A stretch of 64,000 nt of DNA, from assembly GCA_951406725.2 (NCBI GenBank), contig OX597838.1, forward strand, positions 25,854,001 through 25,918,000, read 5' to 3'. The translations under genes were made by a program, and so were the position numbers. This document shows, piece after piece, positions 3,353 through 53,490 of this stretch. The notes below the pieces were generated by a model. That model worked only from the letters and a program-made list of their open reading frames with translations, did no database searches and was not told the origin of the DNA. Position 1 is the stretch's first letter. Every line of letters begins with the position of its first letter. The DNA comes from Octopus vulgaris (Eukaryota).

Positions 3353-3441
3353 AGAAGAAAATGGATATAATAACAATGGGAAACTCGTGGTTTACACTAG
3401 CATGTCTTTAATTAAATCGGTAACAAAGGAGAGATGAGGTG

Positions 3442-3492
3442 GCATTTACGATTGTTTCGATTTACTGGTTTAAGTAAATCTCTTCAGAATGC
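3442..3492 (-). ncRNA. minimal type I hammerhead ribozyme (Penelope/retrozyme type)
   Basis: minus strand GCAUU-CUGAAGA-GAUUUAC(UUAAACCA)GUAAAUC-GAA-AC(AAUC)GU-A-AAUGC: complete core with perfect stems I and II. Confidence 0.85.
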
Positions 3493-4073
3493 AAAGATAG
3501 ATAGATAGATGCATCAGTTAGGATGCGAAAATGATTGATACATATGTGATGGTGATGTAAACAAATTGGTAATTCTTACATTAAATTTTTGTTCTTGCAC
3601 TGGTAAATTCGCTGAGTAGAGGTTTGCTTGTAGTAGATTGGTTAGTTTCGTTGGGAAATTAGGGCAGGGTGAATATCATTTAGGTGCAAGCTACTTCGTT
3701 TAATTAAGCACGTGTGTGTGTGTGTGCATATGCACACAATTTTCAGCTACGAAATTCATTGGCAAGGCATTGATTAGTCATAGGGTATAGTAGAAGACAC
3801 TTACCCAAGGTGCTGCGCTGTGTGACTGAACCTGAAACCGCATAATCGCAAAACAGGCTTTAAACCACACAGCCACGACTGCACTTATACAAATATTCTT
3901 TCAACACATTTTCTATAACATTTACCATAGACACTTTTATGCAGCTCTTTCTTTGTATGTGCATTCAGTTAGAGGTCCCTGTTAAACATCAGTTCATAGC
4001 TGTGTGTAGGTGTATACAGCTGCACACAATCAACTGCATCACTGCACTATCATCTGTGTTGTTGTCTTTACAG

Positions 4074-10030: not shown

Positions 10031-11186
10031 AACATAAGACACTTTAAGCTTTTCCATCCATTGTCTTGTCTGTAACATTATGGGGCATAAATTGTGTAAA
10101 TTTAGATCTTTGGCCCTTTAGCATTTAAACTGGCCAAATCCATGTAAAAAGCATCCAGTTCACACTGTGAAGTGGTTGGAATTTGGAAGGGCATCCAGCT
10201 GTAAAAACTGTGCCTAAGCAAACCTCACCAATGTTTGTACCATGTAAAAAGCACCCAGGTCACTCTGTAAAGTGGTTGGCATTAGGAAGGGCATCCAGCT
10301 GCAGAAACCATGCCGAAACAGACAGTAAAGTCTGGTGCAGTCTTCTGTCTTGCCAGCTCTTGTCAAACTGTCCAACCCACGCCAGCATGGAAAACAGACA
10401 TTAAATGATGATGATGATGATGATATCTGGCCAAAACATTCTACCTGTTTTATATTCAAATTGGCCATATCTGGTCTTTCACACCTACCCTGTAATGCCA
10501 TTCTTGAAATAAACCACCATATCATCAAAGTTTCAAAGCTGCAGGGTCATAAATGATTAATTTAGAACAATGTGAATAAATAAGCCTTAAATTTGGAGGG
10601 AGAGATCTGAATGTTGAAGGGGTAACAAGATAAAGAAATGGATAGCATTTAGTTGTTGAGTATGATGTCTGCTTCTGGTTTGTAAGTTTAAAATTTGTTG
10701 AAATGGAAAAGTGCATAAAAATTATGAATAAATCACAAACACCATTGCTGATATGAATAAATACTTATTTCTTTAATACCCACAAGGGGCTAAACATAGA
10801 GGGGACAAACAAGGACAGACATAGTTATTAAGTCGATTACATCGACCCCAGTGCGTATTCTCCACAGCTAATTCCATCACCACCCATGTCACCACTGGCA
10901 CCATCACCACCACCACCACCATCATATCATGACTACCACTATCATTACCATCACCACCTCCATAACCAAGACTACCACCACCACCATCGCCAGCAAGACC
11001 ACCACCACCTCTAAAACCGTCACCTTCATCACCACCACCACCATCATCACCAAAACCATCACAACTACCATCACCATCAGCACTACACTATCGTCCCTCT
11101 GCTACCACAAAGGTGAAGCTGATATAAATGAATGCTAACCACTCCCTTCTTTTTTTCTTTTTTTTTTTTCCATCTCATGTCCCCAG

Positions 11187-15082: not shown

Positions 15083-15680
15083 GAGTGCAGCTGTATAGCT
15101 CCACTCAAATGTCAGCAGCAGATGACACATTGAGGGATGGAGCCATCATGTCACTCTCTCTATTCAAGGACGACAGAAGACAGGGGACTCATACCAAACC
15201 TTCAGTGGGAGTGCAGTTGTATAGCTTCACTCAAGTGACAACTGCAGACTGTCTGTGAGTGCAACTGTCAATCCACACTTGAATAACAACTGTAAACTCA
15301 AAGAGTGCAGCTGTATATCTCAAATCAAATGACAACAGAGACTACCAGTGAGTGTAGCTGTTCATCTCTACTCAAGTGATAACAGAAGACCCAGTGAGTG
15401 CAACAGTAAGTCTCCATTCAAGTGACAACAGTGTCAGTGAGTGCAGCTGTCAGTCTCCACTAAAATGACAACAGCAGTCTATCAGTGAGTGAATCTGTAA
15501 GTTTGTACTCAAGTGACAACAGTTGACTTGAGTGTATTTGTAAGTCCGCACTCAAGTGACAGCAATAGACTCAGTGAGTGCAGCTGTCAGTCTGCACTCA
15601 AATGAGAACAACACTCTGTCAGTGAGTGGAACTTTCAGTCTCCACTCAAGTGACAACAACAGACCCAGTGAATGCAACTA
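15083..15680 (+). repeat. degenerate tandem array of ~12 units (43-49 bp), each with an internal hairpin, downstream of the IARS2 stop
   Basis: recurring cagTGAGTGcagctgtcagtctcCACTCAagtgacaaca; perfect 9-bp stem at 15575-15600. Confidence 0.9.
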
Positions 15681-17111
15681 TAACTAATGAGGACATTATT
15701 GTGAAATCGTTAAGAAAATAATTGTTTAAATTTGTAAAAGTCATCTTTTGATGATTTTAAAATCTGTGATTCAACGGAAATTGAATTGTTTTTTGTTTGT
15801 TTGTCTTTGATATTAAATTGTTTTGATTACATGGTAGTCCTGTCATAAATGAGAGATGAGGGCCCTGCAGCTTGTTGCTGAGTAACCTGTAGGGATCATT
15901 TGTTTAATGTTTGTGCTGTGCATCAGCTCCCTTCCCCTCCAACAGATCGGCCCCTGAGACGAAGGGATTACTGAATAAAGTGAAATAAATAAAGTGTTTT
16001 GCTCAGGAAAACAATGCATAGCTTGGTCTGGGAATTGAAACCGTGATCTTGGGATCATGAGTGCAACACCCTAAACACTAGACCATTAGCCTTCACATTG
16101 ATTATATACTTACATACATACATATGCACACACACACACACACACACTCACACATATGCAAGCTTGCATGCATACATCTACAAATACATGTATGTTAACA
16201 TCCATGTATACACACACACACACACATACAGAGGCATAAACATTACACACATGTACATACACACACACATGCAGGCATGCATACAGACATACACTCATAC
16301 ATATATAGATATGTATGTATATAAACATCTATGCAGAGAGACACATACAGACACACAGATACACATATACATAAATACACATACATACCTCATATACACA
16401 CACATTACACAGACATACATTAGACATAAACACACACATACCTAAACATATACATTACACACACACATATTACATATAAACACACATACATTACACACAC
16501 ATATTACACAAACACACACACACATGCATATATTACACACATATACAAACACGGACACACACTCACACACACAATGAATGTTATGTTGACGATGGGTATT
16601 TTGTGGATTAAATCAAGTAAACTCATCATAAATTTACATATATGTGCCTGAGTACTCCATAGACACATGTACCTCCGAAATACAGATACAGTCCACATGG
16701 CAGGTTTCCGCATACTTTCTATTCACTTATTTTCGGTCACATAGCTCGGGTCCGTCGAAGGCCATGGTAAAAAAAAATACACTTGGTCCAAGATATTGCC
16801 TAGTTGGGGATTGAACTGAGAAACGATGCAACTTCAAAAGGCAAACTGCTTGAATGTGTCTGCATCCATTCACAGAGGTACAGAAGGCAGAAGGAGACAA
16901 TTGGGAGCGGCTGTTTTGATGTTGGTAGCTGCTAGGCACAGTGGAGTGGACATTGAACTTGGCTTGGCCACAGTACTTTTTGGCACTGGATAGAACTGAC
17001 TCACACACACATGCATGCACTGCATGGAAACATAGATAGATAGATGGACATGATATATGTATTTACATTATTTATATTTGACGGATATTTGTCCTCATCT
17101 TGCTTGTTGCT

Positions 17112-19192: not shown

Positions 19193-19340
19193 CGCCGAGG
19201 TCGACTTTGCCTTTCATCCTTTCGGGGTCGATAAATAAAGTACCAGTTACGCACTGGGGTCGATGTAATCGACTTAATCCCTTTGTTTGTCCTTGTTTGT
19301 CCCCTCGGTGTTTAGCCCCTTGTGGGTAGTAAAGAAATAT
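19193..19340 (+). mobile_element. 5'-truncated SINE with intact CpGs inserted in the fossil transposase
   Basis: cgccgaggtcgactttgcctttcatcctttcggggtcgataaataaagtacc; tail matches 10760-10857 in reverse. Confidence 0.85.
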
Positions 19341-19383
19341 ATTTGCAGAACCTTTTGACGTTTCCAGAGCGATGCATAACGCG

Positions 19384-19398: not shown

Positions 19399-20918
19399 GA
19401 TAAGAAGCGGAGTATTCGAATAGCGAGAACTGATTGCATGGTCGGAATCTTCGTAGAGTGTCTCAGAGTTTTTCAGTCGGAGTTTGAGTTGTTTCCTTCT
19501 TCGAGACAGTGCCCAACTTAAGGTGAGAAACACTTTCTTTCCGTCCTTCATACTACACACATTAAGTTTCCAGCAACTGTATTAGTTTTAGGGGTGGTCA
19601 ATGACTCCTCACGTATACATACATATCTATATTTGTATGAGTGTATGTCTGTATGCATGCCTGTGTGTGTGTATGTACATGTGTGTAATGTTTATGCCTC
19701 TAGGTCGTGTCATGCCTCCTCACATCTTTCGAAATTGTCTTAGAATTAATGCTGCTGGTTACGTCGAAGCGCTGGAGACAGTTGTGAAACTCTGGGCTAG
19801 TGAAGTACGCAGTGGAAGGTCGTAGGTATTTCAGCACGTCTCAGTACCTTTTTTCAAAGCCCTCACAACACTAGAATGGATGTCGGGCAATTTTTACGAT
19901 TATGTACCGTCAAACTCGTGGCCTCCAAATTAGCTAGAGTACATACAAGCACAGACATGCTGATGTACGTATAGGCACGTGCACACACGCATATATCTAG
20001 GCACAGATACACGCATATTTATGCAGGCATATACACAAACATACAAACACGTGCATGTATACACAAAAACTTGCATATACAGATATATGTACACACATGA
20101 ATGAACATATACATCCACGAAGGTGAACGCAAACTCGTGGATTCTAAACATATACAAGGAAATATAAAACCATATAGACACACAAATGTAGGCACTTACA
20201 TACAAATGCAGACAAACCTATGTAGGCGCAGACACATATAGTTGTGTGCATATTCTTTACTTTCGCCCCCATGCTTATGGTTTTGAATGTTAGACTGTAC
20301 AGCATAGTCTTTGGGTAAGCAGACTTGTGTGTTTGTATAAAATGTTGGTATGGCCAAGTGTTTAAGAAATTTGCTTTCCAATCACAGATCCTGTATTTGA
20401 TTCCAAAAGCCCTAAGTTGAGAACTTGGTTAGACCAGTGGTTCTCAAACGGGATCCATATGGTTCCTTTGGACAGTGCCATCTTAGGCACTGTCATGGTA
20501 TTAGCTGTCAGAAGTGAAAGTAGAAAAATCTGATGTCAACTTCGTGTATTTACGTTAGCTAATTCCGTGGTAGTGCCCCATCTTAAAGCATGAGAACACT
20601 GAGTAATTACCCAGTTCTGATCTCTGCTGTGGTTTGCTGTCACTATATACTGCAGGGCACAGGGCATTGATGAATTCAGGGACCTATAATGTTGTGAAGG
20701 TGACTCTGCTTGGACGTCTGTATAAGATTTAATTGTTTGTGAGAAATGAATTAATTATACGTAAAGTATACTAGCCATCTCAATATGGCTAACCACTAAG
20801 GGTGGGTGTTACTGTAGCTTTTAGCCCCAGGAGATCATCGTCTCCAGCTGGCTTTAGATACACTTTCTGTGCCCTTATGATATTTGCAAAGGGAGGTCAT
20901 CCTCTCTCGTAAACCTAA

Positions 20919-20978
20919 GTGATACGCATGGACTGCAGTTTCGAGGTTTTTTGCCTCTTGTCAACATACGGTAATCAC
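20919..20978 (-). ncRNA. type I hammerhead ribozyme, U3:A8 core variant
   Basis: CGUAUG-UUGACAA-GAGG(CAAAAAA)CCUC-GAA-AC(UGCA)GU-C-CAUGCG; palindromic stem III, GUC cleavage triplet, stem I extendable by GUGAU/AUCAC. Confidence 0.75.
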
Positions 20979-21779
20979 CGGTTTTTGATGAGGAGAGACC
21001 TGTTTGCGAATATCTATTTAATGTTTTTCCCAGTAACCACTGTCACTGATTTCGAAAAACTGTCTGAAAGCAATAATAAATCTCTGAACGAGATGTAAAC
21101 AGGGGAGAGGCGGTGGGGAAAGTTTACTAAAAAGTTTGCCAGGGGAGGAGATATAACCAGCATTAAAGATTCTGGATGGCCTCAACAGGTAGCTGTGGAA
21201 GTCATCTCAGACACGGATCTTTTCAAGGTAATAAACTCCTTCCCAGAAGATGCATTCCGCTTCTGATTAAGGTGACCTGACCCGGCACTATCGGAGTGCT
21301 TAAGTGACACTTTGAGCCTGGTTGGGTGCCAGTGGGGCAGAAAATAGTAAAAATTAAGAGGCCGAGTGCCTCATACTGAAAGGACATATGGCCCATAAGA
21401 GAAAATGTAAGAGGCCTAGTGTCTCATTTTTCAGGACATGGTATTATTTTTGATAAGAGGCTTAGTGTCTCATTGTAAGGACCTTGTGTCCAATGGAACA
21501 TTAATAAGACGTTTATTACCTCAAATTGTGTGTTTTGTAAAAGAACAATGTTTTCAAGAAGCAGCAGGCATCGTCTGCCTTCCCTCATTAATACCATTTT
21601 TTTCATCATTCATCTCATTGTTATTGTCCAGCATGCAGGTACTACTTCTTTGTAATACCTTGATGGCAAATTGAATGAAATAAAGTGCTTATGTGAGAAG
21701 ATCTCTCAAGGCTTATAATGCAATATTTGGCATTCTAAGAAGACTTTAATATTGCTTTTGTTGCTAATAATCAATTTTT

Positions 21780-53174: not shown

Positions 53175-53490
53175 TCAAGCTTGATGGCCTTCGCTACCAA
53201 GCTTTGGTGGACACACTCGAGACCAAGCTTGCTGGCCAAACTTGAGACCAAGCTTGATGGCCAAACTTGAGACCAAGCTTGCTGGCCAAACTTGAGACCA
53301 AGCTTGATGGCCAAACTTGAGACCAAGCTTGATGGCCAAACTGGCCAAACTTGAGACCAAGTTTGCTGGCCAAGCTTGAGACCAAGCTCGATGGCCAAGC
53401 TTGAGACCAAGCTCGATGGCCAAGCTCGATGGCCAAGCTCGAGACCAAGCTTGATGGCCAAACTTGAGACCAAGCTTGATGGCCAAACTT
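53175..53490. repeat. minisatellite of alternating 12/13-bp subunits (ccaaacttgaga + ccaagcttgatgg)
   Basis: 25-bp higher-order unit visible directly. Confidence 0.92.

Follow-up and report, generated by a model that had tools for sequence, protein, structure and literature searches.

A type I hammerhead with a mostly U3:A8 core in a small mobile repeat family of Octopus vulgaris

The hammerhead and its repeat unit

On the minus strand of the window (the whole stretch of 64,000 nucleotides of Octopus vulgaris DNA analyzed here), a type I hammerhead with an extended stem I lies within a solo copy of a repeat of about 357 bp (Table 1). Within positions 20978-20919 the strand reads CGUAUG UUGACAA GAGG-CAAAAAA-CCUC GAA AC-UGCA-GU C CAUGCG, exactly the letters given in an earlier sequence-only reading. 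That reading had placed both departures from the consensus core at the paired positions 3 and 8, with everything else canonical, and had continued stem I past a small internal loop. Both departures do fall there, the remaining elements are in place, and the extension is formed by a distal helix, 20978-20974/20923-20919. Three helices surround the core and open at stem I, as in type I hammerheads. U4, G5, A6, A9, G12, A13 and A14, the A15.1-U16.1 pair and H17 are all present. Positions 3 and 8 form a Watson-Crick pair as U3:A8, an accepted variant of the consensus letters C3-G8, which are absent.

A relaxed type I descriptor had five matches in the 64 kb, and only the one at 20919..20978 combines a 6-bp stem I with a palindromic stem III. 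Regions of 121 and 151 nt holding it folded with z-scores of -3.98 and -4.60 relative to 200 shuffles. The monomer hammerhead fold had a nearest-neighbor probability of 0.0006, a weak measure as the calculation ignores tertiary energy, and an Rfam scan of the window gave no match at the gathering score. The hammerhead in the window is confirmed as a real feature. A second hammerhead-like match to the relaxed descriptor, at 3440-3495 on the minus strand, has a CUGAAGA core, an 8-bp stem II and a GUA site.

Table 1. Features of the hammerhead-bearing repeat copy, in window coordinates
Feature	Position	Strand	Remarks
Solo monomer of the ~357-bp unit (likely a retrozyme)	20758..21102	minus	Without 14-nt spacer and tail
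Type I hammerhead with extended stem I	20919..20978	minus	From sequence; pair counts on 129 distinct copies
Stem I	20970-20965/20930-20925	minus	6/6 pairs, one U·G
Core positions 3-9, UUGACAA	20958..20964	minus	U3 = 20964, A8 = 20959; from sequence and family counts
Stem-loop II, 4 bp and 7-nt loop	20943..20957	minus	Last loop A, 20947, conserved
Stem II arms	20957-20954/20946-20943	minus	
G12-A14	20942-20940	minus	
Stem III, 8-nt palindrome	20932..20939	minus	Predicted intermolecular helix in a double hammerhead
C17 (GUC)	20931	minus	Position in hammerhead consensus
Predicted cleavage site, 3' of C17	20930..20931	minus	Position in hammerhead consensus
U1.7, stem I internal loop	20924	minus	Likely tertiary partner of last loop II A
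Likely transcription start and LINE target	20979..20989	minus	ATCG in family, ATCA here; empty in window copy
ATCAGTG element at -61, likely part of an snRNA-type promoter	21044..21050	minus	Matches U2 motif at -57 to -61; function inferred

Family copies align to window positions 21102-20759 at 90-97%. The repeat therefore stops at 21102 and does not reach 21350, the high end of the range named in the sequence-only reading. Across the window copy of the unit there is no ORF of 120 aa. Elsewhere in the genome the unit occurs in tandem, as in L061, a locus of ten units that all carry U3:A8 with a period of 354-357 bp, and many loci hold inverted partial copies. The family is thus a non-coding unit within the 150-450 bp of non-LTR retrozymes, with a type I hammerhead and tandem copies. 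The circular monomer folded with a z-score of -5.6 against 100 shuffles. The 48 alignments at loci L002-L030 show two fixed 3' ends relative to the start of the following unit: 21 break off 12-16 nt short of it and 15 break off 31-35 nt beyond it. Of the rest, eight run on and four end elsewhere. The fixed 3' ends mostly run into (AT)n or AT-rich DNA. A fixed end with a tail, inverted pairs and (AT)n junctions are marks of Penelope insertion. These features make a non-LTR retrozyme the likely identity of the family, with Penelope-like enzymes doing the copying.

Other repeats lie in the window. Three 21-bp direct repeats at 21349-21474 adjoin the unit, and arrays of ~46-bp and 25-bp units occupy 15209-15683 and 53196-53490; none of these is part of the unit family alignments. 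A dispersed repeat of ~230 bp is common (19193-19342, 10766-10855 and 12 further places) and also interrupts a LINE at L112:6221-6452.

We surveyed the 2.8-Gb genome with a 201-bp query, which gave 2,327 first-look candidates, the best 40 of which were scored. The 30 nearest loci yielded 34 hammerhead readings, 33 of them with U3:A8. An exact 21-nt pattern that used stem I as its anchor and left positions 3, 7 and 8 open had 304 genome matches and its reversed control none. U3:A8 is found in 190 of these, C3:G8 in 64, U3·G8 in 42 and C3:A8 in two; the other six were obtained by subtraction, C3 totaling 66. A sister stem I spelling had 463 matches, and the first 100 listed are all U3, with A8 and G8 mixed. 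These exact counts cover two stem I spellings and miss other subfamilies. This small mobile repeat family therefore numbers hundreds of copies, with U3:A8 as their majority state, which is the outcome of the check on genomic copies that the sequence-only reading had proposed. Descriptors fixed on CUGANGA overlook most of it (240 of the 304 matches). Related families in which core position 4 is C (CCGAUGA, CCGACGA) occur in several copies (L009:338, 697 and 1057; L118:1467 and 1092, minus strand; L134; L212; L214). At L115:1350-2250, tandem 50-bp units hold the stem I arm, core and stem II and lack the cleavage strand, making them half-hammerheads.

From 175 loci we took 156 distinct units, and 148 of 154 in-family units, drawn at random, were aligned to give 129 distinct rows. 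These copies were picked by core-like patterns, and the invariance of U4, G5, A6, A9, A13 and A14 is by construction because extraction required these letters. Helix pairing holds in 94.4% of 2,557 cells, with 13 of the 20 pairs changed on both sides. Every covariation measure exceeded all 500 shuffles and the slid controls, relatedness among copies inflating the comparison with shuffles. The 3-8 column has U-A in 64 rows, U-G in 33, C-G in 30 and other letters in two, in a sample stratified by the searches used.

In 106 of the 129 rows stem III is perfectly palindromic, with seven spellings among them, which favors cleavage as a dimer. Its self-duplex is predicted at -11.1 kcal/mol against +2.9 for the 2-bp monomer hairpin, and this fits the double-hammerhead mode known for the class with palindromic stem III (PMC4209133; PMC6765202). 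The palindrome noted in the sequence-only reading is thus present as described, but it is the ordinary dimer signature of this class. In the younger U3·G8 subfamily (L146-L173), the stem III palindrome is 6 nt and GUU replaces GUC at the predicted cleavage site. U1.7 and the final loop II A, probable tertiary partners by assignment from the Schistosoma structure, are each conserved in 128 of the 129 rows, and two loop positions vary freely. Their conservation supports the possible contact between the stem I loop and loop II that had been suggested for the window copy. A reverse Hoogsteen pair between the loops is conserved in hammerheads (PMC6155905).

Likely start site and promoter, and LINE insertions

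An ATCAGT-type motif like that of the unit is found at -57 to -61 in 11 of 12 U2 loci, and the twelfth has a LINE there, with the 3' end of the same LINE group at U2 +1. The motif common to U2 genes and the unit, together with a LINE at U2 +1, makes an internal U2-like promoter likely in the unit. At the same position the motif is present in none of ten U6 upstream regions, several of which resemble retrocopies, leaving polymerase II and polymerase III both as candidates. An snRNA-type promoter was reportedly found in a study of newt satellite 2.

Three loci reached through inverted hammerhead pairs kilobases apart contain, between the two halves of a unit, an L1/Tx1-type element that encodes ORF1 and an APE-RT-zf ORF2 (L110:1662-6986, L112:1590-7158 and L111:2500-7977). 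Its Pfam domains are Exo_endo_phos, RVT_1 and zf-RVT; zf-CCHC rises above the cut-off only in the ORF1-only L113. The inserted LINE, absent from the window copy, thus has the domain set of the Tx1 clade (zinc knuckle in ORF1; APE, RT and zf-RVT in ORF2). We take it to be Tx1 from its motifs and its nearest named homologs, animal proteins of 30-33% identity, the name being a label and not a tree result. The LINE loci (L116-L145, L206-L225 and L231) represent at least two subfamilies, with tandem stacking.

Of 50 LINE 3' ends from two subfamilies, 48 abut the start motif or its counterpart. For the first subfamily this is true of all 30 fetched ends (best 40 of 182 candidates scored), the host being the unit superfamily in 27 cases and a more distant hammerhead family in two, while in the remaining case another LINE follows. 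The second subfamily, 82% identical, has 18 of 20 fetched ends at the target (41 matches). The target motif lies 25 nt upstream of hammerhead position 3. A fixed target with target-site duplication (in L110, L112, L135 and L143) is therefore seen for this LINE, and its presence at the unit's likely start site is very probably target-specific insertion. Amplification of the unit may have multiplied some of the LINE copies along with it, yet many different unit subfamilies host LINEs. Short elements whose single frame is ORF1-like (zinc knuckle), 68-71% alike, share the target (L113:1552-2859, L111:1085-2416, L105-L107 and L075). In L113 the 3' part of such an element is duplicated inverted with the unit, as if carried by retrozyme copying.

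Spread of the family and history of the 3-8 pair

We consider the feature to be the U3:A8-majority type I hammerhead of a non-coding family of about 357 bp, probably a non-LTR retrozyme that spreads by means of Penelope-like enzymes, and we predict that the hammerhead cuts multimers, likely as a dimer (probability about 0.75). Transcription would begin at 20989 from the internal U2-like promoter. Multimeric transcripts would be cut after C17 into unit-length RNA, likely by a dimer paired through stem III, and the unit-length RNA would be circularized and then reverse transcribed by a Penelope-like element. None of the sequencing runs listed as holding the unit is recorded as RNA. Contigs of four runs guessed to be RNA cover the L061 unit unevenly, and contigs show neither ends, strand nor level.

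The history of the 3-8 pair was examined on two trees. The quick tree had 155 units, one false core having been dropped, with positions 3 and 8 masked. It required nine state changes at 3-8, compared with 66.9 in shuffles. C3:A8, the only non-pairing state fetched, falls on two unrelated tips, and U3·G8 forms two groups, each nested among U3:A8 copies. A second tree of 82 rows combined every C3:G8 copy with the window copy, three outgroup rows and a random draw of 45 others; the C3:A8 rows were left out, as were four that stood isolated or may be recombinant. On this tree C3:G8 makes up one side of a branch (98/93), and a single U3·G8 clade can be rejected (p-AU 6e-45). For a clade of all U3 copies the p-AU is 0.24, and the outgroups are long and do not fall on one side of a branch. 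The order from C3:G8 to U3:A8 is assumed, since the outgroups do not fix the root. Because U3·G8 is nested in U3:A8 and its grouping as one clade is rejected, the wobble has at least two origins from U3:A8, and both derived lineages were amplified. We also considered U3·G8 as a stepping stone between C3:G8 and U3:A8, which its nesting inside U3:A8 rules out for the sampled copies.

Amplification of U3·G8 is hard to square with results from a type III hammerhead mutated in pairs, in which only the G:C swap rescued 3-8, other single and double mutants being low (PMC9901934). The U:A swap also gave low activity in that one ribozyme, a caution that U:A activity is context-dependent. With U3·G8 subfamilies amplified, selection on the 3-8 pair looks looser than the bench data suggest. 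The core might even have drifted, the family spreading without efficient self-cleavage and U3:A8 and U3·G8 being passengers fixed in successive master copies. The separate origins of U3·G8 fit this, as do the amplification of both clades (42 exact matches for one; many of the first 100 listed of 463 for the other), the 96% identity within one of them, the most homogeneous group sampled, and the low activity of single 3-8 mutants in one ribozyme (PMC9901934). Against drift, no subfamily with a non-pairing 3-8 state was amplified (two of 129 rows), and the helices and palindrome covary across subfamilies 70-89% identical. We regard drift as unlikely. A comparably tentative idea is that U3·G8 copies are cheaters, weak catalysts cut in trans by U3:A8 or C3:G8 partners in mixed dimers joined at stem III, with the LINEs exploiting the start site and promoter.

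The unit might instead be a solo pseudo-LTR belonging to some coding Penelope-like element not yet found. The same end geometry would be expected, and our search for Penelope-like RTs left room for such an element, with 15,961 first-look candidates and only the best 139 scored. However, unit directly follows unit in arrays and dimers, and the only long frames within units belong to the inserted LINE, making a pseudo-LTR improbable. An RT and GIY-YIG frame between repeats, as an autonomous Penelope-like element would have, was not found in the loci examined. By tblastn, Penelope-like frames are present in only three of the 175 loci, none shown to be linked to the unit. An abundant Penelope-like family found with the RT from L114 was rejected as the autonomous partner as it lacks similarity to the unit: blastn gave no match between the unit and 30 of its loci. 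In this family (L192:394-2745 and 3579-3625; L179-L205) many copies have open 784-aa frames, and in 24 of the 30 loci fetched its terminal repeat carries a minimal U3:A8 hammerhead with a GUA site. As read from these terminal repeats, that hammerhead is a second, independent use of the U3:A8 swap.

Full-length LINEs flanked by 5' and 3' parts of the unit (L110, L111 and L112) could be taken to mean that the unit is the terminal repeat of an APE-RT LINE with hammerhead ends. This is very improbable: a target duplication of 11-15 nt brackets the LINE, near-identical LINEs occupy a wide range of unit subfamilies as well as U2 genes, the unit 5' part is still upstream of 5'-truncated LINEs, and the majority of units have no LINE. 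Least probable of all is a canonical C3:G8 element (CUGACGA) with two private decay mutations in the window copy, a case that the sequence-only reading had itself raised and for which C3:G8 subfamilies and a CpG at positions 7-8 in some copies speak, but which the family counts (33/34 and 190/304) refute, U3:A8 being inherited. CpG decay as the source of A8 would yield C3:A8, the state of only two of the 304 matches.

Returning to the retrozyme reading, the window copy, a lone insertion lacking any partner in cis, is probably a passive descendant. It ends at one fixed family end and has neither spacer, tail nor partner, and it differs from its three nearest relatives at 10-13 positions, including G20986A in the start motif. 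It had been put forward as the best candidate for a still-active ribozyme in the window. With dimer cleavage favored, a lone monomer whose start motif is altered is not the best candidate, and the ten-unit L061 array is a better one. The window copy may nevertheless cleave in vitro because its core is intact: U3:A8 still forms a Watson-Crick pair, and the ribozyme probably works, if perhaps more slowly.

Comparison with known systems

The C3-G8 to U3-A8 covariation is known from several natural hammerheads and is stated to be active in vitro (Perreault et al. 2011, PMC3088659). The core that had seemed non-canonical is thus a natural variant described before, and as an inherited family trait it does not make a new kind of ribozyme. 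Unlike those variants, the octopus family presents a series of states within one family, including amplified U3·G8, and the passages of PMC3088659 consulted contain neither. The swap alone adds little; the value of the locus lies mostly in the natural series of 3-8 states and in the LINE target. As C3:G8, U3:A8 and the twice-derived U3·G8 occur in near-identical contexts, they offer a direct test of whether spread in vivo tracks cleavage rate, a question left open by the poor in vitro cleavage of animal Penelope-type hammerheads (PMC4209133).

Cercyon Penelope-like elements of Schistosoma mansoni carry about 1,300 minimal U3-A8 hammerheads (PMC4209133). Like the octopus family, they combine the U3-A8 core covariation with an animal Penelope-type context, a likely one in octopus, and their motifs on opposite strands, 100-700 bp apart, are a further likeness. 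However, Cercyon hammerheads lack helix III and a defined loop 1 whereas the octopus hammerhead has the full type I architecture, and only in octopus do canonical and wobble sister subfamilies coexist, as far as PMC4209133 describes Cercyon.

The closest counterparts in architecture are the non-LTR retrozymes of Mytilus galloprovincialis, repeats of 350-390 bp that cleave and form circles (PMC7229834). Both have a type I hammerhead with a 6-bp helix I, a 4-bp helix II and a short palindromic helix III, in a non-coding unit of a few hundred bp found as monomers to arrays, with a self-paired circle predicted. The octopus core is mostly U3:A8 or U3·G8, and the terms U3-A8 and C3-G8 are absent from the main text of PMC7229834. 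Expression and circles, known for the Mytilus repeats, are predictions for the octopus family. An origin from Penelope-like elements has been proposed for non-LTR retrozymes (bioRxiv 10.64898/2026.07.22.740005).

The inserted LINE resembles the target-specific Tx1 LINEs, among them Tx1L in Tx1D, Keno in U2 and Tx1-Mar (PMC4494074), in being an APE-RT element that occupies a fixed site in a mobile element or snRNA gene, is flanked by target duplications and stacks in tandem. It differs in its targets, a hammerhead retrozyme and U2 +1, and "Penelope" is absent from the main text of PMC4494074. In the article texts searched, no Tx1 element is described as having hammerhead repeats for its target. 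The likely retrozyme family is new, and a type I hammerhead with a U3:A8 core is already described in nature and in Penelope-like elements.
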